Source: an uncultured bacterium
GTDB lineage: Bacteria > B130-G9
Assembly: GCA_965372715.1 (NCBI GenBank)
Contig: CBDVDH010000004.1
Coordinates: 1 to 64,000 of the forward strand
Reading direction: 5' to 3'
Length of the DNA: 64,000 bases
How positions within the stretch are numbered: position 1 is the stretch's first letter; every line of letters begins with the position of its first letter. The notes under the pieces were generated by a model, which saw only the letters and a list, made by a program, of their open reading frames with translations, was not told where the DNA came from and ran no database searches. Shown here one piece after another: positions 13,600 through 36,851 of the stretch. The position numbers were made by a program, and so were the translations under genes.

Positions 13600-13901
13600 G
13601 CGCCTCGCCCGCCAATCAAGCTAGCCCTGATTGGCATCCCAGCGAGAAGGGCAACTTCACATATAAGGACTGGGCCGGAGAGAGTGGCGCCCGTTTCTAT
13701 GTCGGCAACTCCACCAGCGCGTGGTTTCTTCGGCTCGCAAAGAGGATGGGGATCAGGCTCTCGTTGCCCGTGCTGGCGCATCTTGCCACTTTGGAGAATG
13801 CGCAAAAAACAGATTTTCCGGTGGTTAGTACGTAGTCTGTTATAGCCCTATTGGCATGTTCCGAAGTTCCATGTATGATTGTAATCGAAAGGAGTTTAGC
13901 G

Positions 13902-15956: not shown

Positions 15957-16011
15957 GCGTTTCGACACCACTGCTTGGAATACAGCGGAATATGACAAGG
16001 AGGGTTATAGG

Positions 16012-19000
16012 ATGAAGCTGTCTTCTTCTATCTTGATTATGGTTTCAGTCATGGTTCTTGGTTACGTGGCGGCCATGCTCTCGGCGGCGGAATACCACGT
16101 CAGTATAGACGGCTCTGGTGATTTCACTGTCATTCAGGAGGCGATCGATGCCGCTGTTGATGGCGACACCATCATCGTCCACCCTGGAACGCACTACGAG
16201 AACATCCGGTTTGAGGGCAAGAATATCATCCTTCGTTCGACGGACCCAGAGGATTGGGACGTAGTTGAGGCGACGATCATCGACGGTCAGCAGCTCGGCT
16301 CAGTGGTGGAGTTCTCGGGCACTGAGGACGAAACCTGTCAGCTCCGCGGCCTTACGATGACAAACGGCTCAGCGACCAATGGCGGCGGAATATTCGGCGG
16401 ATTGGAAGATGGACCCCATTCAATGGCTTCGATCTACAATTGTATCATCTACGGCAACACTGCAAGTTCGGGTGGCGGGTTTTGTGGCTGCGACGGTCGA
16501 ATCAAGGGCTGTTGGATTGCCGGGAATCAGGCATCAGGCGGTGGGGCCCTCTATGATTGTCGGGGTGAGATCGTTCGTTGCGTCATCTCCGGCAATATCG
16601 GCGCGTATGGTGGTGCGATTCGCGCGTGCGACGGCCTATTTGCTAACTGCCTCATCTGCGATAACTCCGCGCCAAGAGCAGGTGCAATTTGGGCAAACGA
16701 CAGGTCGCCCACGATAAAAAATTGCACCATAACTGGCAACATCGCGGAACGAGGAGGCGGGCTATACGAGTTTAACGGGAAAATCTTCAACAGCATCATT
16801 TGGGGTAACTGGGCCCCTGAAGGCCCCGATGTTTACCCAGATGACTCATCGTTCACATCATTCAGTAGCTGCATAGGCGATTGGGATGGTTCAGGCTTTG
16901 GCAACATCTCGGACGACCCGCTGTTCGTCGATGCAGTTGAGGGCGATTATCATCTTTCCGCCCGTTCGCCGTGCGTTGACGCGGGAAACAACTCGTATGT
17001 CGTGGGCCTCAGGGACGTTGAGGGTGGTCCGAGAATAGCCAACCGAATTGTTGACATGGGCGCCTACGAATACGCCGTAGGCTGTTACGTCTTCGTTGAG
17101 CCCGACAAGAAAGTTTACGCAACCGGTGAGACAGCCAAGCTGTCGATCCACGCGGGAAGCTCGGACTTTGACCAGCTCGTTGACGTCTATGCGGCGTTTA
17201 GAGTTCCCGGCGGACAACTGTTTTTCATCCCGTCGCTCTCTGCTGATATGACCCCCTGGATTGCCGACGTATCTCTTGGGCCGGAGAGTACGTTTGTCGA
17301 TACGTTTGAGTATGAACTTACTGACGCAGCCCCTGACGGCAACTACATCGTCTATTCGGCGCTTTTTGTGCACGGCTCAACGGATTCAAGCGCTCTGCTC
17401 ACCGATCTGTCTCAGGCCTCATTCATATATCACAAGGGCGAACCGACAACACTCCTTGTAAAGCAGGATGGGTCCGGCGACTTCACCACAATTCAGAGAG
17501 CCATCGATACCGCGCTGGATGGGGATGTGATTGTTGTCTATCCCGGCGTCTATTATGAAAACATCGAGGTCAGCAACAAGAACTTGACCCTGCGATCCAC
17601 CGATCCCGGTGACCTGGATGTTGTGGAGAGAACAGTCATCGGCGGCGCGCAAAACGGCTCCGTGATAACTTTTTACGGGAGGGTGGACGAGACGTGCTTG
17701 CTTTCGGGTTTTACGATAACGAACGGCCAAGCTCAAGAGGGAGCCGGGATAAGTGGCGTTAGGGTTGTTCAGGACGAGATCAAGGCGAGGCCGACGATTA
17801 AGAACTGCATCGTGCGCGACACAGGCGATGGGATTCTTGCCTGCGACGGCCCGATAGAGAATTGTACCGTGAGGGACAACGGTTCAGGCGGCATAGTCAA
17901 TTGTGACGGCGCCATAACTAATTGCCTGATTAGTGGCAATTACGCGGACCGTGCCGGTGGGGGCCTGTCAGGATGCGACGGGGACATCATCAGCTGTAAG
18001 ATTCTAGGAAACTCGGCGGGGCAGTTTGGCGGCGGGGTATATGGCTGCGATGGTCGGATCCTCAACTGCCTGATCAGCGGCAACCGGACCCGGGATTACG
18101 GCGATATGGGTATTTTCGGCGGCGGTGGGATCTCCGGTTGCAATTGCATAATAGAGAGCTGCACGATATCGGACAACTTCAGCACCTGCTACGGAGGGGG
18201 CCTCTATGAGTGCGGAGGCACCATTGCGAACTGCGTGATTTCCGGCAACGAGGCCACATACGGCGGGAGTGCCTTGGGTCGGTATTATGAGAGATTCGAT
18301 GGCAACCTCATCAATTGCACGCTTGTTGACAATTCACACCGGGGAGCCATCGGCTGGTTCGATGGCGAATTCGTCAACTGCGTTATCTGGGAGGATGAGG
18401 GCCTCCCCGAAGAGGACGAGGTCTCGTACTCCTGCATCAAGAATTGGACCGGCGGCGGCGAGGGGAATATCTCTGACGACCCGCTCTTCGCCGATCCTGA
18501 AAACCGCGATTACCGGCTGCTGCCCGGCTCACCGTGCACAAACTCTGGCAACAATTGGGCGGTAAATGGACAATTGGATATCGCCGGGATGCCTCGGGTA
18601 ATAGGCTCGAAAGTCGATATGGGCGCTTATGAGTACCCCGAAGGATGCTTCGTCTCAATAACGGCGGATCAAGATCTGTACACAGGTTCCGATGAAATGA
18701 CGCTCCACCTCACGGCAGGGGCCTTCGGATTCACGCAATTAGTGGACATCTACGCAGCCATTGCATTTCGAGGCCGCGATCTTCTCTTCATCCCCAATTG
18801 GACGTCTGATTGGGTCCCCTGGTTTTCGGGAGTTGAGCTCCAGGAGGGCCCCATCTTCGACGAGTCCTTTATCTATCCTCTTGTGGGGACCGAACCTGAC
18901 GGCACTTCATTCGTATATGCCGCCGCGTTCCCGCATGACTCAAGCGACCTCGCGGACCCATTGACAAATGTGGCCAGCTGCTCATTCAGATACCATCGAG

Positions 19001-20151
19001 CGGGAACGGCAGAGCTGCACGTGACGCAGGACGGGACGGGTGACTTCGAGACGATTCAGGAGGCAATTGACGCCTCACTTGACGGCGACACGATAATCGT
19101 CCATCCAGGGATTTATCGCGAGAACATCGACTTCTTAGGCAAGAGCATCGCCCTCAGATCGATAGATCCGTCAGACCCACGGACGGTTGTCTCCACGGTG
19201 ATTCACGGCCTGTCAGACGAGCCTGTGGTGACGCTCAGATGGGCGGAAGATGGGCTTTGCGAGATTTCTGGGCTCACTATTACCGGCGGCTACACTGGAA
19301 TAACGAGTGATCGTTCGCCTCGTGCGAATGTTACGATCAGCAACTGCATCGTCAGCGGCAACGGGGGGGGACCTCTCATTTATGGTGGTATTCACGGGTG
19401 CGCTGGCGACATCGAAAGCTGCCTCATAAGGAACAACTATGGCTGCGGCATTGCATATTTCAGCGGCACCGTCCGTGACTGCTTTGTAATAGGCAATGGT
19501 TGCACCGGTCTGAGCCATTCCGCTGGGGAGGTATTTAATTGCCTGATCACGGAAAACACGTCGCCCTACGGTGGGGGCGGCATCTGTTATTATAGCGGGA
19601 ACATCACGAATTGCACGATAGCCGGGAATAGCGCGGCGTATGGTGGCGGTCTGGGTGCATGCGACGGGAGGATTCAAAATTGCATTATCTGGGGCAACAA
19701 CGCCCCGGTGGGCGGTGAGATTAGCAGCTCATCTGCGATTACTTATTGCTGCGTCCGCGACTTCGCGGGAGGCGGCGAGGGAAACATCTCGGATGACCCG
19801 CTCTTCGTAACAGGGCCACTGGGTGACTACTATCTGTCCTCCCTGACGGCAGGTCAGGATGCGGACAGCCCTTGCATAGACGCCGGCTGGGGAACGCCCA
19901 GCGATTACGGTCTTGAGCGATATACGACAAGAACCGACGGGACGCCAGATACCGGCACCGTCGATATGGGTTTCCACTACCCGACGGATGAAGCGCAGGT
20001 CGATATAGAGGTGAGCTGCTCGCTCAACGCCGATGGGTTTGCTGCGGGCCACCACAAGCCCGGCGCCTATAGTCACATCTCAACGCTCGCGCCCAGCGCC
20101 TCGCCCTACGGTTTCATCTGCACAGATTCAGCGCAGTTCAACGTCAATTGA
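16012..20151 (+). CDS. secreted protein with three tandem beta-helix modules; last C-terminal module apparently truncated
   Basis: Three G.GDF..IQ.AID caps, three repeat tracts and three DPLF...SPC closures; paralog of 13902..15956. Confidence 0.88.
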   Translation: MKLSSSILIMVSVMVLGYVAAMLSAAEYHVSIDGSGDFTVIQEAIDAAVDGDTIIVHPGTHYENIRFEGKNIILRSTDPEDWDVVEATIIDGQQLGSVVEFSGTEDETCQLRGLTMTNGSATNGGGIFGGLEDGPHSMASIYNCIIYGNTASSGGGFCGCDGRIKGCWIAGNQASGGGALYDCRGEIVRCVISGNIGAYGGAIRACDGLFANCLICDNSAPRAGAIWANDRSPTIKNCTITGNIAERGGGLYEFNGKIFNSIIWGNWAPEGPDVYPDDSSFTSFSSCIGDWDGSGFGNISDDPLFVDAVEGDYHLSARSPCVDAGNNSYVVGLRDVEGGPRIANRIVDMGAYEYAVGCYVFVEPDKKVYATGETAKLSIHAGSSDFDQLVDVYAAFRVPGGQLFFIPSLSADMTPWIADVSLGPESTFVDTFEYELTDAAPDGNYIVYSALFVHGSTDSSALLTDLSQASFIYHKGEPTTLLVKQDGSGDFTTIQRAIDTALDGDVIVVYPGVYYENIEVSNKNLTLRSTDPGDLDVVERTVIGGAQNGSVITFYGRVDETCLLSGFTITNGQAQEGAGISGVRVVQDEIKARPTIKNCIVRDTGDGILACDGPIENCTVRDNGSGGIVNCDGAITNCLISGNYADRAGGGLSGCDGDIISCKILGNSAGQFGGGVYGCDGRILNCLISGNRTRDYGDMGIFGGGGISGCNCIIESCTISDNFSTCYGGGLYECGGTIANCVISGNEATYGGSALGRYYERFDGNLINCTLVDNSHRGAIGWFDGEFVNCVIWEDEGLPEEDEVSYSCIKNWTGGGEGNISDDPLFADPENRDYRLLPGSPCTNSGNNWAVNGQLDIAGMPRVIGSKVDMGAYEYPEGCFVSITADQDLYTGSDEMTLHLTAGAFGFTQLVDIYAAIAFRGRDLLFIPNWTSDWVPWFSGVELQEGPIFDESFIYPLVGTEPDGTSFVYAAAFPHDSSDLADPLTNVASCSFRYHRAGTAELHVTQDGTGDFETIQEAIDASLDGDTIIVHPGIYRENIDFLGKSIALRSIDPSDPRTVVSTVIHGLSDEPVVTLRWAEDGLCEISGLTITGGYTGITSDRSPRANVTISNCIVSGNGGGPLIYGGIHGCAGDIESCLIRNNYGCGIAYFSGTVRDCFVIGNGCTGLSHSAGEVFNCLITENTSPYGGGGICYYSGNITNCTIAGNSAAYGGGLGACDGRIQNCIIWGNNAPVGGEISSSSAITYCCVRDFAGGGEGNISDDPLFVTGPLGDYYLSSLTAGQDADSPCIDAGWGTPSDYGLERYTTRTDGTPDTGTVDMGFHYPTDEAQVDIEVSCSLNADGFAAGHHKPGAYSHISTLAPSASPYGFICTDSAQFNVN

Positions 20152-23871: not shown

Positions 23872-23915
23872 AGTTTCAAGTTTCAAGTTCCAAGTTTCAA
23901 GTTTCAAGTTTTAGG
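23872..23915. repeat. heptamer tandem repeat (AGTTTCA)n
   Basis: agtttca agtttca agttcca agtttca agtttca agtttta; related tccaaag repeats at 23839-23861. Confidence 0.85.
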
Positions 23916-23977
23916 TTACTTGAGCCCTTTATGTCATTGTGGTTGAGCGAATCCAAAGTTGGATGGTTTGAGGTTCG

Positions 23978-24347: not shown

Positions 24348-25457
24348 ATGGCGAGGCAAGGCGTTCCGGCTGTGGATGAGAGGGCGGTCCAGAGCCTGTT
24401 GTTTCGGTATCCTCAGATAGTCGAGTCGCATCTAGCGAGAAAGCGGCTCTCGTTATCCGGGCTCGAGGCTGAGACGTGCGAGGACGTTTGCGCGGCTGGC
24501 AGAATAGACCTCGCGTTCAGGGACAGAGCGAGCAACTCGCTGGTTCTTTTGGAGATACAGCTGGGCCGTGCCGATAGGGACCATTACGACCGGCTCGTCT
24601 CGTATGTCGATGAGTATTCGGAGCGTTTCTCTTTCTCATGGGTGATTGGCGTCCATTTCGCGGAGGCTTTCCCCAAGACGCTGCCGCGATACAGGCCTCC
24701 GCTCTATAGGGTGCGTTTTACGGCTAGCAAGGTCGTCCGGCTTGCCGAGGCGCTTGAGGAAAAGGAGGCGAAGCTCCTGGGTCTTGATTGCCCGAAGCCG
24801 CCTGTCTGCGCGTTCGCCAAGCTTTCCTATCTCAACGGCTTCTTCGCCTTTATGAGGAAGCGGTCGTTTGTCACGTTCCGCGAGGTGGTTGAGAACGTCC
24901 CGAATGTGGCCAAGAACCCGCGTCAGATACGGAATCCTGAGTATCGGGCGCGGCTTTGGATACGCTTTGGGGAGAGTTTTGGGCTTTTGGCTTCTGGTGA
25001 CGGCAGGATAGTTCTCACCGATTTGGGGACGGCATACGCCGCCTCATTGGATAGGTCCTTTGTATGGGCCGTTTCCCCTCGCCAGAGGCGGATTCTGATT
25101 ACAGGGATTTCTGCCGCTCGCTGCACGAATGGGCACAAGTTCGGCATTTTCTGCATCTTGAAGGCAGCGGAGCAATCGGAGGAAACGGCGCTCGCGTCGG
25201 CGGATGCTCAGATGCAGAGCTTTGTGTCATTCTGCCGCTCCAGTGGCCGGTGGGCGAGAGTCTCGCAGAAGGCATCTTTCGTCTGGTATGGCAATTACGC
25301 CCGCGAATTGGGCCTCTGCGAAGATACCGGCGCCTCTTCTGGCCCGCTCTTGCTCACCGCGCGCGGCCGGGATGTCCTTGCTCTGTTTTCGAGGCAATTT
25401 GCAGCATTTGAGATGGAGCGCCGGCTGCTTTTGAGAGGCTTGGGCGGCGCGTTTTGA
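24348..25457 (+). CDS. putative nuclease: N-terminal PD-(D/E)xK-like domain plus two winged-helix-like segments
   Basis: GRIDLAFRD...LLEIQLG..D..H...Y; two helix-GL..(x)n-LT..G segments in the C-terminal half. Confidence 0.55.
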   Translation: MARQGVPAVDERAVQSLLFRYPQIVESHLARKRLSLSGLEAETCEDVCAAGRIDLAFRDRASNSLVLLEIQLGRADRDHYDRLVSYVDEYSERFSFSWVIGVHFAEAFPKTLPRYRPPLYRVRFTASKVVRLAEALEEKEAKLLGLDCPKPPVCAFAKLSYLNGFFAFMRKRSFVTFREVVENVPNVAKNPRQIRNPEYRARLWIRFGESFGLLASGDGRIVLTDLGTAYAASLDRSFVWAVSPRQRRILITGISAARCTNGHKFGIFCILKAAEQSEETALASADAQMQSFVSFCRSSGRWARVSQKASFVWYGNYARELGLCEDTGASSGPLLLTARGRDVLALFSRQFAAFEMERRLLLRGLGGAF

Positions 25458-25661
25458 CGCAGTAGCGAATCTCAGTTCAGAAACCGCCCAAGACGCGTGT
25501 CTTCGTGGGATTGAGGCGCGGATCGTCCAATGATTCGGCTTGCAGAGGCGTTCATTATGGCTGCGGAGTGGCTGTCTGTTTTGCAGGGGACGTCTTGAGT
25601 TCGGCCTTTACATCTGCGAGCCCTAGCGTAAGATGAATGATATGGACAGAGACAGGCCAAG

Positions 25662-25800
25662 ATGAACGATGTCCTCATTGGGTTTGGCGTGCTTCAAGTC
25701 TGGGCGGAAGATGAGGATGGGCATTTCGTGACCGACAAGAAGACAATGAACGTGTTGGTGTATCCAGAGATCAACTGCAAGTATGAGGACGGAAGATGGT
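25662..25800 (+). pseudogene. diverged remnant of cassette gene A (A0)
   Basis: NDVLIGFGVLQVWAE...KKTMNVLVYPEINCKYEDGRW aligns with NNVPIGWAELMIEAE..RKMTMKVFVTPDIWCKYENGRW. Confidence 0.7.
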
Positions 25801-26635
25801 GGCGTCGCGCCTGTCGGCTGAGAAGATCGACCCGAGGCGCGTGGTGACCGCGATCGTGTCGCGGATACCTGAGCATCTTAGGACGTGCGAGGTTTGCCTT
25901 CGCTCGCAGGGCGAGAATAGGGCTAACGAGCCATTGTGGGAGCGCCGCGATAAGTTTCTATTTGAACCGTTCACAGATGGGAATGGCGTGCCCTACATCG
26001 CGGCCAGGGTAACATTCAACAACGTCCCTATCGGCTGGGCGGAGTTGATGATCGAGGCGGAGGGCTACAGGAAGATGACGATGAAGGTCTTCGTGACGCC
26101 TGAGTTGAGGTGCAGGTTCGACGAAGAGAACAATAGATGGCAGCTTCTGCCGGTCAGGATCCCTTGGGTGATCGACCCGGAGCGTAGCCCCTACGCTGTT
26201 GACCAGGGCCAGGTCGGTATCGTTCCACCACCCCAACCGTCCGCTATTCACGTCCCCGGCTTCCTCTGGAAGCGAGTCAATGGCTACTTCATCATCGATG
26301 ACCCGCTGAACAAGCCGTGGGACCGATATGTGCCCTCAAAGATCAGAGGGTACAACTACGGAGCCAACGACCCATGGTTCAGCGTCGATGCGCAGGAAGT
26401 CAAGAACGATCAAGACGTTTTCTTGTACTTCTGTGGCCCCAACAATGAGGATCCGAGGCAGGAGCCACCTAGCCCTACTAATGAATGCCAGAACACCCTC
26501 CCACAACACGCATCCGAGCCTATAGGAGAGATTGAGTTAGCGCCTCTCAGTCCGGCGGAGGCATTTATCGATATTGAGGAGACGGATGAAGCGCTTCAGT
26601 TTGAGGAGGGTGATGATGGTTTGTGCAAGGACTGA
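25796..26635 (+). CDS. cassette gene A1 (constant block plus variable C-terminal module); possibly 5'-truncated
   Basis: Paralog of 28116..28898 and 30234..30791; no convincing RBS or signal peptide. Confidence 0.7.
   Translation: MVASRLSAEKIDPRRVVTAIVSRIPEHLRTCEVCLRSQGENRANEPLWERRDKFLFEPFTDGNGVPYIAARVTFNNVPIGWAELMIEAEGYRKMTMKVFVTPELRCRFDEENNRWQLLPVRIPWVIDPERSPYAVDQGQVGIVPPPQPSAIHVPGFLWKRVNGYFIIDDPLNKPWDRYVPSKIRGYNYGANDPWFSVDAQEVKNDQDVFLYFCGPNNEDPRQEPPSPTNECQNTLPQHASEPIGEIELAPLSPAEAFIDIEETDEALQFEEGDDGLCKD
25834..26103 (+). repeat. 270-bp constant block, copy 1
   Basis: About 3 mismatches to 28148..28417 by eye. Confidence 0.95.
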
Positions 26636-27989
26636 GCACCGCATAACACTGATTGTTCTTATCGTGGCGGCGTCGATCCTGAATGCTTGGCCTGGGGACG
26701 CCTACCCTTGGGTCCACTATTTCAAAAGACCGGAGATGCCGAGGATTCGTTGCGCGTTCGCGGATCCGGAAGGCAATGTACTTGTTGGGACCGGGGACTG
26801 GGACAACACACGTGCGGGCCCGTCTGGATACTACTGGCGAGAGTTTTGGTCCGAAGGCATCTTTCTCATCAATGAGGATCGGATCCAAGCGATATCGTGT
26901 CCTGAAGACATGATTACCGTCGACCTCGCGGCTGACCGAAGGGGTAAAACGTGGGCGCTGATTGCCACGGGCCAGGACTACCTAGTGGAGAAGAGCCTGC
27001 TTGATTTAGGATCTAACGCGCGATGTACTTCCCTACAATCGCGACGCATTGCGCGCTCGCGATCGAGCGGGGCAGTTGATTCTAGATTGGCCTATTTGGT
27101 GGGAACTACACTCGTTGAGTATACAGGATTGATTGATGCGATCCCATATCACTCCAGGTCCATGACATCAGATGCTCAAGGTCGCTTATTTGTGCTCAGC
27201 GGCGAGCAAGTTGGATGGTATTTCTATCAATACGCGATATCCTGGTGGGATGCCGAGGAACCGATAGAGATTCACACTTTAGACTTCAGCAACATTCTCC
27301 CGGATGCGGAGATGGTGGGGGTGTGTACAGACCTGATGGGGGAATACCCCGTGTTCGGGCCGGATGGGTTGGTATATATCGCAGCGGAGTATTCGTTGGA
27401 TGAGGAGTCCAGAACGTGCGGCGTCCTTTGCCTGAATCTGGACACTGAAGAATGGCTGCTGTTCAGCGGTGGGGAGAATCCGCTCCTCGACTCGAAGTTA
27501 GAGTATTTCTACGTGGACCAGATGAATAGAAGATGGTTCTGCACAGAGGACGGCCTGGTCTTGTTTGACGGCGAGAACTGGGTGCGCTTCACGACAGACA
27601 ACAGCGATCTGTCCTACGATCGCATCAAGCTGGTCGTTTATGACGAGATCGATGAGGTCTATTACGTCGGTTCAGCAGCGGAAGACTGGCAGCAAGATCC
27701 AGACCATTACGTCGCGTTGAGTGTCTTCGCGCCTAATGGACGGCAAATTGGGGAGCCCTTTTATTTGCCGAGGGGGCCTATCCTGCGCCGGGGAGCCAAC
27801 GGGATTCACTATCTCCTCCCAGGCTGGGATGATGATCTAGTTTACGCCTATGATCACGACAGAATCAGCGAATTCAGCCTGCGAGATTGGATGGACATCC
27901 CTGAGTATTCGGCTTGGGATCTTTATATCTTCCCTACGTCAGTCGGGGACACGTTCTTCGTTACTAATTACAGTGTTATGATCTGGTAA
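26616..27989 (+). CDS. cassette gene B1, secreted Trp/Tyr-rich probable beta-propeller
   Basis: Signal peptide ending GDA; WFCTEDGLVLFDGENW..FTT.NS propeller-like motif; ends MIW; overlaps A1 by 20 nt with RBS gaggagg. Confidence 0.85.
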   Translation: MVCARTEHRITLIVLIVAASILNAWPGDAYPWVHYFKRPEMPRIRCAFADPEGNVLVGTGDWDNTRAGPSGYYWREFWSEGIFLINEDRIQAISCPEDMITVDLAADRRGKTWALIATGQDYLVEKSLLDLGSNARCTSLQSRRIARSRSSGAVDSRLAYLVGTTLVEYTGLIDAIPYHSRSMTSDAQGRLFVLSGEQVGWYFYQYAISWWDAEEPIEIHTLDFSNILPDAEMVGVCTDLMGEYPVFGPDGLVYIAAEYSLDEESRTCGVLCLNLDTEEWLLFSGGENPLLDSKLEYFYVDQMNRRWFCTEDGLVLFDGENWVRFTTDNSDLSYDRIKLVVYDEIDEVYYVGSAAEDWQQDPDHYVALSVFAPNGRQIGEPFYLPRGPILRRGANGIHYLLPGWDDDLVYAYDHDRISEFSLRDWMDIPEYSAWDLYIFPTSVGDTFFVTNYSVMIW

Positions 27990-28004
27990 CGGACCGTTCC
28001 ATGG

Positions 28005-28110
28005 GAACCAAATAGGGGAGATTGACTTAGAGGGTGAGAGGGCTCGTATCGTCCCAACGGCAGAGGGGCGCAACTTCTGCCTTGAGGCCGATTCGCTGAT
28101 GATCTGGTAG
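28005..28110 (+). pseudogene. C-terminal remnant of another B gene
   Basis: Reads IGEIDLEGERARIVPTAEGRNFCLEADSLMIW-stop; compare B2 IGSTANGRNFSVESKWIMIW-stop. Confidence 0.75.
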
Positions 28111-28115
28111 GAGAC

Positions 28116-28898
28116 ATGCTGGGCTTGTGGTCTAACAGGATCGACGTGAGGCGCGTGGTGACCGCGATCGTGTCGCGGATTCCGGAGCATCTTAGGACGT
28201 GCGAGGTTTGCCTTCGCTCGCAGGGCGAGAACAGGGCTAACGAGCCATTGTGGGAGCGCCGCGATAAGTTTCTATTTGAACCGTTCACAGATGGGAATGG
28301 CGTGCCCTACATCGCGGCCAGGGTAACATTCAACAACGTCCCTATCGGCTGGGCGGAGTTGATGATCGAGGCGGAGGGCTACAGGAAGATGACGATGAAG
28401 GTCTTCGTGACGCCTGACATCTGGTGCAAGCACGACGATGAGAAGAAACGGTGGTATCTGCTCCCGCCCAGAGAGGAGCTGATCCGGGTCACAGAGCTCA
28501 CGGGTGAGCTGCGACGGGCGGTCGAACAGATCACGCGGCAGATACCCCAGCAGGATGGCGAATTTCACATCCCGGGCTTCCTCTGGAAGCGAGTTGATGG
28601 CTACTTCAAACTTGATCCGGATGGCTCCCGCTACGACCCCAAAACAATCGCGGGCTATAACTACGGAGCGAACGACCCCTGGTTCGACGTCGATGAGCAG
28701 AAGGTCGAAGATCCCGAAACGGGGATATTTCTGGGCTTTTGCGGTCCCAATAATGAAGACCCAGTAACGCTGGGTTACTCGGAGGGGTGTCACGGCGCTT
28801 TGCCGTCACATGAGTCCGAGCCAATAGGCGAGATTCAACTCGTCCCCATCATAGTCGCAGAGGTAAAGGAGGGAGATCATGACCTTTGTGAGGATTAA
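28116..28898 (+). CDS. cassette gene A2
   Basis: aggag before the ATG; constant block followed by a variant C-terminal module ending EGDHDLCED. Confidence 0.75.
   Translation: MLGLWSNRIDVRRVVTAIVSRIPEHLRTCEVCLRSQGENRANEPLWERRDKFLFEPFTDGNGVPYIAARVTFNNVPIGWAELMIEAEGYRKMTMKVFVTPDIWCKHDDEKKRWYLLPPREELIRVTELTGELRRAVEQITRQIPQQDGEFHIPGFLWKRVDGYFKLDPDGSRYDPKTIAGYNYGANDPWFDVDEQKVEDPETGIFLGFCGPNNEDPVTLGYSEGCHGALPSHESEPIGEIQLVPIIVAEVKEGDHDLCED
28148..28417 (+). repeat. 270-bp constant block, copy 2
   Basis: Near-identical to copies 1 and 3. Confidence 0.95.
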
Positions 28899-30252
28899 AC
28901 AGAAAACAACTTTGCTTCTTCTTATTCTCACTGCGAGTGTTTGTCACACTCAGCTGATAGAGGCCTATCCCTGGATTCACTACTTCCAAAGGCCGGAGAT
29001 GCCTCGGATCCACTGCGCTTTCGCAGATCCGGAAGGCAATGTGATTGTTGCCACCGGAGACTGGGACAATACGCGTGCGGGCTATCCTGGGACATACTGG
29101 CATGAATACTGGTCCGAGGGCATTTTTCTCATCAATGAGGATTGCATTGAGACGATACGGGGACCAGCCAACCTTTATGTCAATGATTTCGCGGTTGGCG
29201 CCGGAGGGCGAGTCTGGGCGATGGTGCGAACAGGCCAAGATTACATGGTGGAGACGGCTGCGCTTGATCGAGCAGCAGAGGCGCAGTGTGGCCCAGAATC
29301 GGTGTTTTCCCAGCGCGGCGGGAGCTCGAGCGGGAGCATTGTTGTTGACGGCAGACTGGCCTATCTCGTAGATGGTGCCCTCGTCGAATATCCTGGCCTC
29401 ATTGATGAGATTCCATATTGGGCCACAACATTGACATCAGATGCCCAGGGTCGGTTGTTTTTGATGAGCGGCGTGCGCCCAGATGAGTATCACTTCTATG
29501 AATGCGCGCTATCCTGGTGGGATGGCGAGGAACCGATAGAGATTCACACTTTCGACTTCAGCGACATTATCCCGGATGCGGAGATGGTGGGGCAATATCC
29601 GGTGTTTGGGCCGGATGGCTTAGTATATATCCCAACACTGTATTCCTTGGATGAGGAGTCGAGAACGTGCGCGATCCTGTCCCTGAATCTCGAGACGGAG
29701 GAGTGGCAGCTGTTTACCGGTGCAGAGAATCCCCTGCTAGACTCGAAGTTACGGTATTTCTATGTGGACCAGATGAATAGGAGATGGTTCGGCACTGAGG
29801 ACGGGCTGGTCCTCTTTGACGGCGAAAACTGGGCGCGATTTACGACCATTAACAGCAACATTCCCTATGACAGAGTCATAGAGATCGATTTCGACAACCT
29901 GAGTGATTGCTATTATGTGTTATGCAGAGAGGCCGGTGCAACAGGACCCGGGGGCTGGCCCAGGAGGGCATTGACCATATTACATTCCAATGGTCAGTTC
30001 TGTGATCCTCCTTTCCATTTCGATGGGCTGTGGGTATCAAGCCCAGGGGATCACGTTTTCAGGGATTGCCGAGACGTCTGGTGGTTCCAACACATCGCGG
30101 AGTCATCTATTGTATATTCTTATGACCATCAGCAAGTCATGACGTGGGACACCCGGGACTGGATTGAGGATTCTTTAGGAGGAGACTATATCGGCTCAAC
30201 CGCCAACGGGCGTAACTTCTCCGTGGAATCCAAGTGGATAATGATCTGGTAG
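28879..30252 (+). CDS. cassette gene B2, secreted probable beta-propeller
   Basis: Paralog of B1 (YPWIHYFQRPEMPRI.CAFADPEGNV...WSEGIFLINED); signal peptide; 20-nt overlap with A2; ends MIW. Confidence 0.85.
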   Translation: MTFVRIKQKTTLLLLILTASVCHTQLIEAYPWIHYFQRPEMPRIHCAFADPEGNVIVATGDWDNTRAGYPGTYWHEYWSEGIFLINEDCIETIRGPANLYVNDFAVGAGGRVWAMVRTGQDYMVETAALDRAAEAQCGPESVFSQRGGSSSGSIVVDGRLAYLVDGALVEYPGLIDEIPYWATTLTSDAQGRLFLMSGVRPDEYHFYECALSWWDGEEPIEIHTFDFSDIIPDAEMVGQYPVFGPDGLVYIPTLYSLDEESRTCAILSLNLETEEWQLFTGAENPLLDSKLRYFYVDQMNRRWFGTEDGLVLFDGENWARFTTINSNIPYDRVIEIDFDNLSDCYYVLCREAGATGPGGWPRRALTILHSNGQFCDPPFHFDGLWVSSPGDHVFRDCRDVWWFQHIAESSIVYSYDHQQVMTWDTRDWIEDSLGGDYIGSTANGRNFSVESKWIMIW

Positions 30253-30791
30253 GAGGATTCCTGACCTCTGAGAAGATCGAGGTGAGGCGCGTGGTGACCG
30301 CGATCGTGTCGGGGATTCCGGAGCATCTTAGGACGTGCGAGGTTTGCCTTCGCTCGCAGGGCGAGAACAGGGCTAACGAGCCATTGTGGGAGCGCCGCGA
30401 TAAGTTTCTATTTGAACCGTTCACAGATGGGAATGGCGGGCCCTACATCGCGGCCAAGGTAACATTCAACAACGTCCCTATCGGCTGGGCGGAGTTGATG
30501 ATCGGGGCGGAGGGCTACAGGAAGATGACGATGAAGGTCTTCGTGACGCCCGACATCTGGTGCAAGTATGAGAACGGAAGGTGGTATCTGCTGCCGCCGA
30601 CGGAGGAGGCGCTGCCGCTCACGGAGCTCACGGGTGAGCCGCGACCGGTGGTCGAGCCGATACTCCCCGACGAGGGCGTCTATCACATCCGCGCTGCGCT
30701 CTGGAAGCAGTCCGACGGCTACTTCCACGGCACTAGATACGACCCAGCCGGTGAGCTCTTCCCCATGACATCTAAGGTCGATGCCAGCTGA
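30234..30791 (+). pseudogene. cassette gene A3, 3'-truncated, with no partner B
   Basis: Homology to A1/A2 stops after GYF..RYDP; the NYGANDPWF, CGPNNEDP and EPIGEI motifs are missing. Confidence 0.7.
30284..30553 (+). repeat. 270-bp constant block, copy 3
   Basis: About 5 mismatches to copy 2, four of them non-synonymous. Confidence 0.95.
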
Positions 30792-30840
30792 CCCAACCAT
30801 CTCCGCCTGCCTGATCGTCCGTGACGAAGGTGCGTACCGC
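30781..30840 (+). pseudogene. N-terminal fragment of a family-2 glycosyltransferase (tentative)
   Basis: PTISACLIVRDE matches the GT2 first-strand motif; the frame then runs into repeat DNA. Confidence 0.5.
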
Positions 30841-30924
30841 GCACGAGATGCAGATTCAGCCGAGGCCGCGGGCGTCGGCTCGCACGTGCCGAGCGCGCCT
30901 CAGTCGGAAAGGGGGAGAAAGGGG

Positions 30925-31011
30925 AATCCGCCGACGCCAAGGCTATGGCGGACAAGGGGGCAAGGGGTCAATAGGTCAATCCGCCGACGCCAAGGCTATG
31001 GCGGACAAGGG
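30925..31011. repeat. two direct copies of a 34-bp palindromic element
   Basis: aatccgccgacgccaaggctatggcggacaaggg at 30925 and 30978 (tccgcc...ggcgga stem). Confidence 0.9.
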
Positions 31012-31310
31012 CGTGGAGCAGGTGTTTCTTGGGCAGCGCCTGCTGAGACCGCAGCGGATTCTTAAGGAGCCAGACTGACCGTCTGCGGCAGGAATTGTCT
31101 GGTTACTCGTTCGCGCGTTTGCCAGTTGGGGAACTCCTCCCAAGAAAAGACTTGAATGGCGCAAAAAATAGGGTATGTTAAATGCGGCTGTATTAACGGC
31201 TAACTGATAAGTTTACATTCTATGCTGCATGTCAGACTGGGCAGACTGGCCATAGTGGTGGTTTTGTGTGCATTGGTTGCGGCGTCATGTTATTTGATGG
31301 AGGACCGGAA

Positions 31311-34300
31311 ATGTCATTAAGACGGGTCGCGATCGGTTGCTCGGTATTTGTTTTTCTTATCATTGGTTTGACTATATGCCAGGCCGGCGAATGGTCCGAC
31401 TACGAGATCACTGAGGATACAACTTGGGATGCGAGCGAAAACCCAATTGTCTTGATGCGTGATCTTACCGTTCATAGCGTCAATCCAGATGATCCGAGCG
31501 ACAGGGTCAAGCTGATTATAGGGCCGGGCGTTGTTGTCAAGCTTGCGTCGCATGTTGACATCTTCGTTGATGGCGTAGTGGAGGCGGAGGAGGCGCTTTT
31601 TACCTCGATAAACGACGATACAACGCTTGACGGCGCTTGGGAGGGCAGCACAGGGTCGCCTCAGGTGGGTGACTGGAATTCGATTTACATCTACAACCAC
31701 AATGCCACGTTCTCTGGTTGTACTTTCCGCTACGGCAAGTCGATAGAGATCGAGGATTGCTCACCGAGGCTGTATGGCAACCGTATCGAGATGTTCAGTC
31801 GCTATGGGTTCTACATCGTTGCACGGGACACGCTCGTCAGCCCTGTTATCGAGTGCAACAAGATTTTCGACATCGGTGAGCCTTATACGGACGACAACCC
31901 CGAGAACGGCAAGTTCGACGCTGGCCAAGAGGAGTATCAGGACTTCGACAATAATGATCAGTATGATGCTGGTGTCGCGATCTATTGCTACACTCCTCCT
32001 TCGTCCTTCGGGCCGTGCGTTCCGCTGATAGAGTTTAACCAGATAATCATGAGCACCGATCCTGAGGTTGCTCGCGGCGGCTTGCCGATAGTGTTTGAGA
32101 ACACATTGCCTGTCATGCTTGACGTGGGCGGCGTCCCACAGAACCCGATTCCGGACGGGAACATGATTCGACAGAGGACGAATGACGACAGGTTCGTTTC
32201 CGCGATCGGTATCAAGGGCTACATAAAGCCCGGTGAGCTGGACGATGAGACCGGCGATTATACTTACGTCGAATACTTCCTCCCGCTAGTTGACGACAGG
32301 GCTGTGGCGGCGGGGCAGATATCGCCGATGAATCAGCATCTTCCTTACGTCGTGTTGGAGGACCTCGTCATCGCCGCGGGCTGCGATCTCGCTATTTCGC
32401 CGAACTGCGTGGTAAAGTTCTCCGGGGGCACAAGCCTCGAGATACTGGGCACCATTCAGACTTCCGACCTTCCAGCCTCGCGCAGCTACTTCACGTCGCT
32501 TCACAACAATGCTTCCGGCTTGAGGGTTCCGGGAAGCAACAGCGTCCCCTCGCCAGGGGACTGGTATCAGTTCAGGATATGCTGCAGTGACTGCTTGGTG
32601 AAGAACAGCGACTTCAGCTACGGCACTTTCATCAAGATCGATCAGTGTTGCCCTACATTCATCAACAACACCATCGCCAACTTCTACTTGTATGGCCTGT
32701 ATATCTACGCAGAGGCGCAGCCGGCGAGGCCCGAGGTCTCGCGCAATACAATTCGGGACTGCGGTCACGTCGTAGATGAGGCTAGCGGCATCTATGAGGG
32801 CGGCGGTATATGCCTCGAGACGGGGCGAGATTATCTGGGCCCCTGCGAGCCGACGCTTCAGGACAACCGGATTCAGAGCAATCACGGCTATCCGTTGACT
32901 CTCTTGGGCACGTGCGATCCGCTTTACATCAACAACACATTGATGAGTAATGCCTATCGTGCTGTGGCGATTGGCGGCACGATTCGGGGCCGCGGCGCCA
33001 CTTGGGATGACGTAACTGGTTTCCATTATCCTTACGTTGTCATCGACCCGGTGGTAATAGCCGGTGGATACAGAAGCTACGGGCTTTCCACGGCTATCAT
33101 ATCAAGCGACCCGGTCGGCGGCGTTTTCGACACGCTTGTTGACGCAACCGCCGACTGGAAGGAGAACGTTCTCACGGGTTCTATGCTGTGCCCAAATACG
33201 GAGCGAGAAGAGCAGTTTGAGATAGTCTCCAACACTCGCACGGCGATCTTGGTTGGTTCCGACATGTCCGGCGTTGCTGATAGCGGCGACCCTTATGAGT
33301 TCGTCGTGGAAGACACCGTTGTGGATGTTCCTCTTGGGACGATAATCAAGATGGCCAAGGACATGAGCATCTACGTTAAGGGCCAGCTTGTCTTGAACGG
33401 CACGACTCGGGACAGGATTCATTTCACGTCCTTCAATGACGACGCTGCCGGCGGCTCGGTTCTTCTTTCGGGTTCCACGCCGATGCCACAGCCCGGTGAC
33501 TGGGAGTTCTTCAAGTGCGAGAACGACAAGAATAAGATCGAGGAATGCGTCTTCAAGTATGGCACGTCGATATTCATAGACAGCTGCTCGCCGCTGATTC
33601 AGCACAATTCCATTGCTCTGTTCTCGAGGGCCGGCATTCACTGCTACGCACACAGCGGAAAGGCGTCACCCTCCATACTCAACAACGCGATCATGTGCAA
33701 TCGCAACGGCGTGCGCTGCGAGACCGACCCGGGATTCACTGACCCGCACGGCGCGACCCCGATGATCCATTCCAACGACATCGTGAGCAATGAGGAGTTT
33801 GGAGTGGTGAACCTTCAGGAGGGGGCCGCGATAGACGCCGTCCTGAACTGGTGGGGCGCGGTAGATGGGCCGGCGGGCGTCGGAACCGGTACCGGCGACC
33901 ACGTCAATGAGGGCGTGGTCTTCGAGCCGTTTCAGGACGAGGCAAACTTCGAGGTCGATTCTGCGCCTCCCGTGTTCTCGGATATATTCCCCGCGCCACA
34001 TTCGGTGGATGTCGATACAAGCACGATCATCATGTTGACGGTTACGGACGTCGGCAAGGGCGTGGATACCAACTCGGTCTCGATAAGGGTCGATCATGAT
34101 GATGGCGAGGGTTTTGTCTATGTGATGAAAGATGGCGAGGACGTTCAGTATAACGGCGGATATGTTACCCGAGATGATGTGGGAAACGGCTATCGCTATA
34201 GTTATGTTCCGGGACGCGCTTTCGCTGCTGGACGGCAGATATGCGTGAAGATGCGTGTTTCGGACCTCGAGCTGTGCCCCAACAGCTCGGAGTATTCGTT

Positions 34301-36851
34301 CTGCTTCTGGACGGGTCGAAGTATTGGGCTTGCGTTTGGCCGGGTGGAGCCTGAGATCGGGACCACCAGGACGCAGTTCACGTATAGCGTTGACTTCTTC
34401 GACAGGGACCTCGCTGCTCCAGTATCCGCGCTGGTCTATATAGACAACATGCCTCGCAGCATGGCGTTTGTGGCGGGCGACCCGTGGGAGGGGACTTACT
34501 CCTATACCACGTCCATGAAGGTTGGCTATCACACGTTCTACTTCGAGTTTGAGGGCGGAGGCGGCGCGGGAGTGGTGTGGCTGCCAGAGTTTGGCGAAGT
34601 TCCGCCTTATTTCTATGGCCCGACGGTTCTTTCAGATGAAAGGACCGAGATTTGGCCGATGTTCAGGCACGATCCAGACCACAGCGGCAGCTCTCCTGTT
34701 GTGGCCACCTCGGCGCCAACGCTCAACTGGAGCTTCGTTGCGGGCAGCTATATAATCTCGTCCCCCGTCGTAGATGCCGACAACACCGTTTACTTCGGCT
34801 GCTGCGACGGCAATGTCTATGCGATCAACACCGATGGGACGGTCAAGTGGGCGGTCAGCACGGGCGATTATGTCGCGAGCACACCAGCTCTTGCCGAGGA
34901 TGGCAGTTTGTACATCGGTTCTGGCGATCGCTACTTCTACTCTTTCGATCAAGAGGGCGCGCTGAACTGGTCCTATAAGACCGGCGGCGTTTTAGATTCA
35001 TCTCCCGTGATCGGTATCGACGGGAACGTCTATTTCGGCTGCAACGACAGCTATCTGTATTCAATGACGCCCGACGGCGAGCTGAGGTGGCGATTCAATA
35101 CCGGCAGCTGGGTAACCTCTTCGCCCGCGATATGGTTTGACGGCACGGTCTTCTTTGGGTCCGACGACAACAAACTTTACGCGGTTCGGCACGACGGGAA
35201 CCTGCGCTGGAGCTACGATACGGGCGACGTTATTACGTCCTCGCCGGTTGTAGGTCCTAACGCGACAATATATGTGGGCGCGGGCTATCAAATACTCGCC
35301 ATCAACTCCGACGGGACGCTCAAGTGGCGAGTTAATGCCGACAACATCGTGCATTCGTCGCCAGCGCTATCTCAAGATGGCGTGCTTTACGTGGGCTCTT
35401 ACGACCACAAGCTCTACGCGATCGATGCTGAGACGGGAACGATAGACTGGACCTACGCCGCAAACAACATCATCCACACCTCGCCTGCGATCGACGGGAA
35501 CGGCAACGTTCTATTCGGCTCGCACGACGGCAACCTCTACTGCGTTGGCAAGGACGGCACGCTGATGTGGCGTTTCTACGATCCGGTCAGGCCTGGTTAT
35601 GGCTTTGACGTTCACAGCTCACCAGCGATTGGGCCAGACGGCAGCGTCTATTTCGGGTCTGAGGAGAAGTTATACGCTTTGAAAGACCTGCCAGTGCATA
35701 ACTCCGCCCCGACGCTTTCGGATGCGACGTATGGTCCGTCCGGCAGAAGCGCGACGAGATACGAGTTCAAGATCCACTACTTCGACAGGGAGCTCGAGCC
35801 GCCGTCGGTGGCGAAGGTCATCGTAGATGACGCGGAGTATGCGCTCTCCCACTGTTCGGGAGAGGCGGCCAACGGCTACTACGCTACGAACATCATGCTC
35901 ACGCCCGGGGAGCACACTCACTATTTTCTCTTCGCCGATGCGACGAGCAAGACGGCGAGGTTCCCCGCGGTTGGCGCAATCGATGGCCCAGATATTGAGG
36001 AAGGCTCGCAGGGGACAACTCCTTCCGCCCGCTCGGTGCCTCCAACGGTCTGGATGGCAGGCTACTTCGGCTCTCACGTCTCCGAGCGGCTTGGAGGCCG
36101 GCTCCACATGGTAGCGTATTGCACCGATCCTGACGACGATATCGCTCGCGTCGATCTTTGCTTAAAAGGCGAGGCGCTCGTGCCGCTCCTTGACGACGGC
36201 GAGTCGCAGGACGGCCTTGCCGGGGACGGGATATACGCCTGTTTCGTGGAGGTCAAGCCCGGACTTCGGGCGGGTCTTCATCTGTATGAGGTTATAGCGA
36301 CCGACGCCGATGGGAATATGAGCAACGTCTGGCCTTACGTGACGATCGACGATTATCCGCAGTTCGACCTCCCGGGGCTCCGGAGCACATCACCTGGCGC
36401 CATTCCCGGTATTGGAACGTCTTCACCCGTTGGTGGAGAGCCGGCGCCAAGGCTAAGCCTGAATCTCCAGAACTACATTCTGGACTCGATTCGAGGCGTC
36501 TCAAGCCGGAACGTGGGGCCCGAGCCAGAGATACTCCTCGCCGGTTTTGGCAGCTGCAAGATCGACCAGGACACGGGTGGGACGCTCTTCCTCAACGTTA
36601 TCGTCAACGACCCCGATGGGCCTTCGGACATCGCCTCGGTCGAGGCCGGGAAGTCGGTCTATGACGCGGGCGATTTCGACTTCGGGACCGTTCAGCTTGA
36701 TTCGCTTACCGGCGACGGCCACAGGACCTATTATGGCGCCAGATGCCGCATCTCTGGCGGCGAGCGAGGCCATCATCTGATAGAGATTCAAGCGGTGGAC
36801 GAGGGCGGCAACCGCAGCACTTCCTTCCCATACCTTGTCGTAACCGACTAG
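31311..36851 (+). CDS. giant secreted multidomain protein (beta-helix repeats, Ig-like modules, PQQ-like beta-propeller, choice-of-anchor X-like motif)
   Basis: Signal peptide; three FTS.ND...P.PGDW units; about eight SSP.i..DG.vYfGs.D..lYa....G...W blades; LLDDGESQDGLAGDGIY; RBS ggagg. Confidence 0.88.
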   Translation: MSLRRVAIGCSVFVFLIIGLTICQAGEWSDYEITEDTTWDASENPIVLMRDLTVHSVNPDDPSDRVKLIIGPGVVVKLASHVDIFVDGVVEAEEALFTSINDDTTLDGAWEGSTGSPQVGDWNSIYIYNHNATFSGCTFRYGKSIEIEDCSPRLYGNRIEMFSRYGFYIVARDTLVSPVIECNKIFDIGEPYTDDNPENGKFDAGQEEYQDFDNNDQYDAGVAIYCYTPPSSFGPCVPLIEFNQIIMSTDPEVARGGLPIVFENTLPVMLDVGGVPQNPIPDGNMIRQRTNDDRFVSAIGIKGYIKPGELDDETGDYTYVEYFLPLVDDRAVAAGQISPMNQHLPYVVLEDLVIAAGCDLAISPNCVVKFSGGTSLEILGTIQTSDLPASRSYFTSLHNNASGLRVPGSNSVPSPGDWYQFRICCSDCLVKNSDFSYGTFIKIDQCCPTFINNTIANFYLYGLYIYAEAQPARPEVSRNTIRDCGHVVDEASGIYEGGGICLETGRDYLGPCEPTLQDNRIQSNHGYPLTLLGTCDPLYINNTLMSNAYRAVAIGGTIRGRGATWDDVTGFHYPYVVIDPVVIAGGYRSYGLSTAIISSDPVGGVFDTLVDATADWKENVLTGSMLCPNTEREEQFEIVSNTRTAILVGSDMSGVADSGDPYEFVVEDTVVDVPLGTIIKMAKDMSIYVKGQLVLNGTTRDRIHFTSFNDDAAGGSVLLSGSTPMPQPGDWEFFKCENDKNKIEECVFKYGTSIFIDSCSPLIQHNSIALFSRAGIHCYAHSGKASPSILNNAIMCNRNGVRCETDPGFTDPHGATPMIHSNDIVSNEEFGVVNLQEGAAIDAVLNWWGAVDGPAGVGTGTGDHVNEGVVFEPFQDEANFEVDSAPPVFSDIFPAPHSVDVDTSTIIMLTVTDVGKGVDTNSVSIRVDHDDGEGFVYVMKDGEDVQYNGGYVTRDDVGNGYRYSYVPGRAFAAGRQICVKMRVSDLELCPNSSEYSFCFWTGRSIGLAFGRVEPEIGTTRTQFTYSVDFFDRDLAAPVSALVYIDNMPRSMAFVAGDPWEGTYSYTTSMKVGYHTFYFEFEGGGGAGVVWLPEFGEVPPYFYGPTVLSDERTEIWPMFRHDPDHSGSSPVVATSAPTLNWSFVAGSYIISSPVVDADNTVYFGCCDGNVYAINTDGTVKWAVSTGDYVASTPALAEDGSLYIGSGDRYFYSFDQEGALNWSYKTGGVLDSSPVIGIDGNVYFGCNDSYLYSMTPDGELRWRFNTGSWVTSSPAIWFDGTVFFGSDDNKLYAVRHDGNLRWSYDTGDVITSSPVVGPNATIYVGAGYQILAINSDGTLKWRVNADNIVHSSPALSQDGVLYVGSYDHKLYAIDAETGTIDWTYAANNIIHTSPAIDGNGNVLFGSHDGNLYCVGKDGTLMWRFYDPVRPGYGFDVHSSPAIGPDGSVYFGSEEKLYALKDLPVHNSAPTLSDATYGPSGRSATRYEFKIHYFDRELEPPSVAKVIVDDAEYALSHCSGEAANGYYATNIMLTPGEHTHYFLFADATSKTARFPAVGAIDGPDIEEGSQGTTPSARSVPPTVWMAGYFGSHVSERLGGRLHMVAYCTDPDDDIARVDLCLKGEALVPLLDDGESQDGLAGDGIYACFVEVKPGLRAGLHLYEVIATDADGNMSNVWPYVTIDDYPQFDLPGLRSTSPGAIPGIGTSSPVGGEPAPRLSLNLQNYILDSIRGVSSRNVGPEPEILLAGFGSCKIDQDTGGTLFLNVIVNDPDGPSDIASVEAGKSVYDAGDFDFGTVQLDSLTGDGHRTYYGARCRISGGERGHHLIEIQAVDEGGNRSTSFPYLVVTD

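Follow-up and report, generated by a model that had tools for sequence, protein, structure and literature searches.

Orphan C-terminal tip and immunity gene arrays of contact-dependent growth inhibition (CDI) and Rhs systems consist of start-poor 3′ fragments with varying upstream homology, a downstream partner gene and a fixed boundary motif; an orphan tip can be close in sequence to the tip of another strain's full gene, and the partner diverges faster than the tip, as in a CDI pair with 76% in the tip and 35% in the partner (PMC3150448). Polymorphic toxin systems combine a constant 5′ body with a variable 3′ cassette, an adjacent gene and strings of displaced partners (PMC3482391). In Vibrio cholerae type VI secretion system (T6SS) effector–immunity arrays, old partners lie behind the newest module, members are closer to other strains and 3′ effector remnants occur (PMC5361080). 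Tle/Tli pairs place a GxSxG alpha/beta-hydrolase without a signal peptide beside a partner that has one, and a propeller partner is mentioned for Proteus PefD/PefE (10.1101/2023.03.28.534661). Proteus IdsD/IdsE show allele-like variation in two homologous partner families (PMC4471559). Here we describe an array at positions 25,662–30,791 of a 64,000-nt stretch of contig CBDVDH010000004.1 (the window), from an uncultured bacterium of the lineage B130-G9, in which A genes, the tips of a much longer parent protein, are paired with B genes for predicted exported beta-propellers. The cassettes have very probably been exchanged between strains, and we give about an even chance to the reading that the array is a disarmed effector–immunity locus in which the swapped part would set specificity.

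The array resembles each of the systems above in the respects just named, the hydrolase here being putative: a long gene with a constant body and a variable 3′ end, paired orphan cassettes, and an orphan tip corresponding to another strain's working tip were all found. It also departs from each of them. Unlike in CDI and Rhs loci, there is no VENN, DPxGL, Rhs or haemagglutinin sequence here, the tips are all homologous, the partner is a 460-aa exported propeller rather than a small cytoplasmic protein, and the head of the full gene was found in none of the genomes searched; the parents P0009 and P0001 and the tips gave no Pfam or NCBIfam match that would place them in Rhs, CDI or MafB. Unlike in polymorphic toxin systems, we found no known trafficking domain or secretion system and no unrelated C-terminal toxin domains, and the likely enzyme is in the constant part, so a swap would change specificity and not activity. 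The V. cholerae arrays differ in that no T6SS marker was found in the five genomes tested here and nearly every B still has a tip in front. Tle proteins have no sequence match to the parent, and differ further by the T6SS marker (0/5 genomes here), the 1338-aa size and the position of the variable part outside the hydrolase. IdsD/IdsE share no family with the locus and have a different export. As judged from sequence, the array appears to work like polymorphic-toxin orphan arrays, yet it is not an Rhs, CDI, MafB or Tle locus: its layout is known, and its proteins lie outside all family libraries searched.

Array layout and the parent protein

The window's genome (G000) is a 3.56-Mb assembly, 96% complete, in 112 contigs. 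In the collection searched its phylum comprises seven genomes, all of one family, four of them at least 94% complete; the other family genomes are labelled G001–G006, loci L0xx or L125 and metagenome proteins P00xx. Candidatus Coatesbacteria is the source name on three tip proteins and on one B-containing record. Omp85, secretins and one FHIPEP gene were present in 5/5 genomes tested; the cells therefore have an outer membrane. Literature on the lineage name, B130-G9 and related terms, covering PMC12343361 but neither most subscription papers nor supplements, did not describe the family.

The preliminary description of the array, made from the window alone, gave the order A0, A1–B1, B remnant, A2–B2, A3, and the sequence bears this out, with all members on the plus strand between a NucS-like gene on the left and a gene for an 1846-aa beta-helix protein on the right. 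The features are as follows.

25662–25847, plus strand: A0, remnant at the array head; an ATG fused to parent residues ~1147–1186, then out of frame.
25796–26635, plus strand: A1, orphan 3′ piece of the parent, 279 aa; stalk block, variable insert, closing strand and acidic tail.
25836–26102, plus strand: constant 267-nt block, copy 1; codes for most of a CarboxypepD_reg/transthyretin-like beta-sandwich (tentative, on weak matches).
26616–27989, plus strand: B1, 457-aa predicted exported beta-propeller partner; mosaic.
27990–28110, plus strand: B remnant, ~40 terminal codons of another B gene; ends as other B genes do.
28116–28898, plus strand: A2, a 260-aa orphan from the 3′ end of the parent; distal part groups with metagenome tip P0007 (76%, support 99/96).
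28150–28416, plus strand: constant block, copy 2; differs from copy 1 at 3 silent positions.
28879–30252, plus strand: B2, 457-aa predicted exported beta-propeller partner; 55–56% to B1.
30234–30791, plus strand: A3, truncated tip without partner; right-hand end common to G001 and G006.
30286–30552, plus strand: constant block, copy 3; differs from copy 2 at 5 positions, 4 of which alter residues.
24348–25457, plus strand: left flank, gene for a conserved 369-aa protein that weakly matches NucS; site marker in 6/7 family genomes, outside the cassettes.
31311–36851, plus strand: right flank, 1846-aa beta-helix and PQQ-type propeller gene; site marker in 6/7 family genomes, outside the cassettes.

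The array repeats exceed chance by far in length and identity, the next direct-repeat families outside the array being at most 53 nt. The block of 270 bp proposed earlier is indeed near-identical between copies (3, 8 and 5 differences between the three pairs, 97–99% identity), and its true span is 267 nt; directly behind it, identity falls from 95–100% to ~50%. Its protein is identical in A1 and A2 and has four residue changes in A3. The 267-nt version is specific to the window's genome, and the family-wide boundary lies at its last codons. Of the motifs first listed as shared, LWK..GYF is in all three A genes, whereas the truncation of A3 leaves NYGANDPWF, CGPNNEDP and EPIGEI to A1 and A2; since the right-hand end of A3 is common to G001 and G006, this break is old. 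In both pairs A and B overlap by exactly 20 nt, with the ribosome site of B, AGGAGG, inside A and six bases before the B start. A signal-like start is present on B and absent from A, as noted from the beginning (Kyte–Doolittle values of the N-terminal stretch of 3.28 for B1 and 2.77 for B2, against 1.12 for A1 and 1.31 for A2).

Two parents from metagenomes confirmed that each A gene corresponds to the tip of a far longer protein. A profile of 14 tips run against 1.84 billion representatives gave 23 matches (P0026, a repeat protein, was left out), among them P0009, a 1338-aa protein whose C terminus is stalk plus tip. The search for longer proteins gave the 1097-aa protein P0001, which breaks off after 44 residues of the block; the two are 39% identical over 1137 columns. 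Among 8000 candidates no further parent and no shorter parent pieces were found, and a parent was found neither in viral contigs, plasmids and phages nor in a single-protein scan of genome contigs. P0001 and the tip protein P0008 are both recorded with a 6897-bp contig. The sequence of P0001 ends within the block and that of P0008 begins in the same block, a few residues further on, so the two may be halves of a single parent gene.

The parent had been expected elsewhere in the same genome, and this expectation found no support: outside the array, the 96% complete assembly has no match better than E 0.4 to P0009 and E 2.7 to P0001. Residues 1–887 of the parent were found in 0/7 family genomes, though 5/7 hold tips, on the shared site wherever it could be traced. 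Relatives instead point to a parent at the head of this array, since deleted. At the same site, five A pieces and four B genes are present in G002, two A and one B in G001 and broken pieces in G006 and G004, and G003 is empty, with only 387 bp between the flank genes. The parent residue at which the match of the first cassette begins is about 910 in G001, 956 in G002, 1039 in G006 and 1147 in the window's genome, all past the GxSxG serine S631. The ATG of this cassette follows the flank gene by 5 nt in G002 and G006 and by 203–204 nt in G001 and G000. The window's genome has the same start as G001, but A0 lacks a further ~850 nt kept in this same-genus locus. We infer that the parent stood at this site and that its head was lost at three different points. 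In the metagenome locus L040 the array is beside another gene, and parent residues from ~825 follow behind a B gene.

Two further observations concern parent pieces in relatives. G002 A2 (L017:12214–13986) opens with a window-type block start and continues in the middle part of another parent type; it is a chimera of two parent lineages. Tip fragments of G004 at L023:7598–7933 and at the end of L125 lie at contig ends, behind repeated non-coding DNA and away from the NucS-like site.

Probable exchange of cassettes between strains

Paired orphan cassettes are present in the window, G001, G002, G006, L040 and L042. The strain comparison called for at the outset ties A genes to B genes and shows tips and B genes grouping across strains. 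A2 groups with P0007 (76%, support 99/96), the front of G002 B3 groups with the B of L042 (100/99), and the distal part of A1 is 68% to P0008 against 58% to A2. The tip of P0009 is closest to an orphan, G002 A1 (70%, support 94/88, just below the tool's star mark). In the tip tree, 9 of 17 inner branches are open. B1 is itself a mosaic, its front grouping with B2 and its rear with G002 B4 (100/99 each), to which the rear third is 69% against 35% in front. The B remnant is 75% to the end of B2 over 67 nt.

Boundaries recur as well. Nine of 14 B ends are followed within about a dozen bases by a KTMQVFVYP-type motif (one a duplicate), three by the window-type block start, one by a B remnant and one by unrelated DNA; L041, which repeats the G006 junction, was left out. 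The homogenised stretch lies on different sides of the motif: in G002 it covers 240 nt behind it (81–100%), in the window's genome the 267 nt before it. For two tips at 74%, the corresponding B genes stand at 49%, comparable to the CDI pair cited above, and the same marks are described for CDI and Rhs orphans (PMC3150448). A closer relation to other strains than to neighbours is the test that separates gain from duplication in place (PMC5361080). Together, these results make exchange of cassettes between strains highly probable.

Tip, partner, parent head and flanking DNA

The distal tips align as one family, and at least two cysteines are present in 20/20. The A2 model (predicted local distance difference test (pLDDT) 53) matches transthyretin-like sandwiches, best 1nkg (Z 7.7, root-mean-square deviation 2.9, 85 residues), through A2 residues near 10–100 and a strand near 240–246 (span 8–245); a Foldseek search with this model gave no match at E 0.001. 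In a 13-sequence CarboxypepD_reg profile, A1, A2 and P0007 score 8–13 bits, reached by 0/1200 shuffles, four other stalks do not score, and the score of A2 rises by 2 bits when the terminal motif supplies the last strand. No Pfam match was found for the stalk. Proline-rich linkers lie upstream of the stalk in G001 and G002. The models tentatively suggest that the constant block is probably a small beta-sandwich stalk with the variable part inserted within it, in which case each cassette must bring the closing strand.

The first impression of B as propeller-like is strengthened by profile matches to solved sensor propellers (3v9f, E 4e-13; 4a2l, E 2e-8) and to PorZ (5m11, E 0.0014); Pfam PF07494 is above cut-off in the B of L040 only. 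All seven B genes measured have a signal-like start, and LTSC, present in some B proteins, is a pattern we take to be lipobox-like. Of the ten B genes read over their full length, nine are open and one carries a single internal stop. The ratio of nonsynonymous to synonymous substitution rates (dN/dS) came to 0.21 in a B pair and 0.19 in a tip pair, compared with 0.10–0.12 in the flank gene and 0.49–0.56 in truncated terminal copies, with two out-of-frame rows dropped (A1 against A2, distal; B1 rear against G002 B4). Tip similarity tracks the front of B (Mantel rho 0.45, p 0.009, 10 pairs) and not its rear (0.11, p 0.31). Complex prediction for B2 (28–457) with A2 (8–260) scored 0.00 against a mark of 0.32; the controls did not fold and the partner fold is uncertain, so the result counts neither way.

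In the constant head, both parents carry a GxSxG nucleophile elbow, GGSHG (S631 in P0009). An ordered chain of eight S9 blocks scored 76.5 and 63.0 in the two parents, reached by 0 and 7 of 1000 shuffles, and both scores top all 208 long frames of the window's genome (best 61.8). Only single-sequence shuffle nulls were used, the column-shuffle null of the paired run being too lenient because it breaks up gaps. Strand 4 and the serine take matching places in both parents, and in the paired run strand 4, helix B, serine and strand 6 do so. H970 is invariant in 8/8 rows, and an Asp at 941–943 with His970 are the favoured candidates for the catalytic partners. From motif order, the constant head is predicted to be, likely, a Ser-Asp-His alpha/beta-hydrolase.

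The DNA around the array has features of its own. The 369-aa left-flank gene lies downstream of queD and matches the NucS C-terminal domain (E 0.005) and PDC-S11 (E 1e-4), both weakly; with a dN/dS of ~0.1, it is possibly a lineage-specific nuclease. A 7-nt tandem repeat lies between a SpoVG-like gene and queD (23872–23920), with similar runs on unrelated contigs. A sigma-70-like site at 25607–25634 stands 28 nt upstream of A0 in a stretch common to G001; the promoter scan overall was at chance level (4 sites against 4.2 expected). A fragment at 30781–31065, presumably the start of a family 2 glycosyltransferase and without a Pfam match, marks the old right-hand break of the array, and a longer similar remnant follows the last B in G004 (L029) and in L044. 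The 53-nt direct repeat at 30906–31011 looks like a small interspersed repeat, similar short elements occurring on several contigs of the genome. Large exported beta-helix proteins of 701, 1401 and 1846 aa are encoded at 13851–20151 and 31311–36851; those of 701 and 1401 aa contain or end in a short beta-rich module that by eye resembles the extra N-terminal domain of the L040 B, and this module could be a lineage-wide sorting or anchoring domain.

Readings of the locus

In the preliminary description the A genes were tips of a larger protein, paired with B and exchanged, and these parts stand; neither a parent encoded elsewhere in the genome nor its export was supported, the parent having no signal-peptide-like stretch. 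For the layout observed, we infer the following mechanism. The array would be the tail of a polymorphic effector–partner locus after loss of the head. In its intact form a 1338-aa parent would comprise an N-terminal region, the putative hydrolase and a C-terminal stalk with a two-cysteine variable insert, with a B gene overlapping each tip end. A tip-and-B unit from another strain would recombine at the homology that codes for the stalk and push older units downstream, with crossovers also inside B. The parent would act outside the cytoplasm of neighbouring cells, the tip setting the binding target, and the exported propeller would bind and neutralise its own tip type; if so, a row of B genes guards against several neighbours. 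As the putative enzyme is in the constant head, the swapped part would be a specificity module and not the toxic domain. In the window's genome and the other genomes that could be followed, the head would have been deleted, and what is left is most likely kept for its stock of B proteins and spare tips. A bolder proposal, which we put forward tentatively and with markedly less confidence, is a new conflict or recognition class confined to one tiny uncultured phylum, with a signal-less serine hydrolase, a swappable disulfide-bearing stalk insert, cognate exported propellers and none of the known polymorphic-toxin routes, repeatedly disarmed with the propeller array kept.

A number of observations weigh against a disarmed effector–immunity locus. 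The intact layout is pieced together from parts, and three of the seven family genomes are only 83–87% complete. VipA and Phage_base_V were found in 0/5 genomes and a VirB4-type protein in 0/7, with controls detected; with no signal-like stretch on the parent either, no delivery route was found (in gp19 and SprA searches the controls were silent). The tips align at 31–74% identity, unlike the unrelated toxin domains of Rhs and CDI, and in the B mosaics part of B does not travel with the tip. The single B of G001 (L019:8868–10196, minus strand) has an in-frame stop, shared by two near-identical metagenome contigs that are not independent, and the between-strain dN/dS may mirror selection in ancestors that still had the head. 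As for the hydrolase, parent and tips had no match in Pfam, NCBIfam, PHROGs, PADLOC or PDB sequence searches, the ESM Atlas gave low scores only for P0001 and none for P0009, the fold model of P0001 (pLDDT 30) had no Foldseek match, a whole-domain S9 profile did no better than shuffles and hhalign was also negative, and the chain did not recover the first strand and put its Asp and His blocks at places that differ between the parents.

Of the other explanations, the one that survives best, itself rather unlikely, is a store of surface variation without antagonism. Parent and B would then form one secreted or surface hydrolase complex, with B as anchor, chaperone or substrate gate; swaps of tip and B would alter adhesion or evade phages or predators, and headless arrays would be decaying reservoirs. 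Tips that are variants of one fold on an adhesin- or pilin-like stalk (best VIA matches Z ≤7.7), the proline-rich linkers before the stalk, the resemblance of B to ligand-binding sensor propellers and PorZ, and the propeller that S9 peptidases have in the same chain all suit such a store. Joint export is hard to explain, however, with a signal-like start on B and none on the parent, and B genes have stayed open in 9/10 cases although the head was found in 0/7 genomes.

Kin recognition is a good deal less probable. A tip and its cognate B would form an identity pair like IdsD/IdsE, a match meaning self and a mismatch leaving the hydrolase or a signal active, and the array would widen the set recognised as self. 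Homologous, allele-like variation in both partners, the Mantel correlation of tips with the front of B and the kinship of B to sensor propellers are in line with this. The correlation is also expected from linkage and shared descent, though; B has no membrane or signalling domain, and the five genomes tested have no marker of the T6SS needed for Ids export (10.1101/213785).

Slightly less probable again is an intact parent present in the strain and lost from the assembly or bin through the shared 267-nt block, with the array a silent donor set in use. Copies of the block at 97–99% identity need recent homogenisation, the known parents are on short contigs of 6.9–8.8 kb, and the genome is in 112 contigs; against this, the head was found in none of the seven genomes, four of them at least 94% complete, no contig outside the array gives a match to either parent beyond the E values above, and the place expected for the parent is taken by A0, a product of deletion. 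Neutral debris from tandem duplication and decay of one A–B pair, or an assembly artefact, is very improbable: A0, the B remnant and A3 are broken and one B has a stop, but copies group with other strains rather than with neighbours, which largely refutes debris, other genomes show junctions of the same types and the same right-hand break, and between blocks each unit has more than 1.5 kb of unique sequence.

On the reading as a disarmed effector–immunity locus, the usual logic seems inverted, the enzyme staying while a specificity module is swapped together with a large exported partner. Should each B neutralise tips of its own type, the locus would add an effector family and an immunity fold, probably together with a route of export, and about twenty homologous tips with ten partners would form a natural panel for the evolution of pair specificity. 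The array gives a first handle on cell–cell interaction in a phylum known from few assembled genomes.

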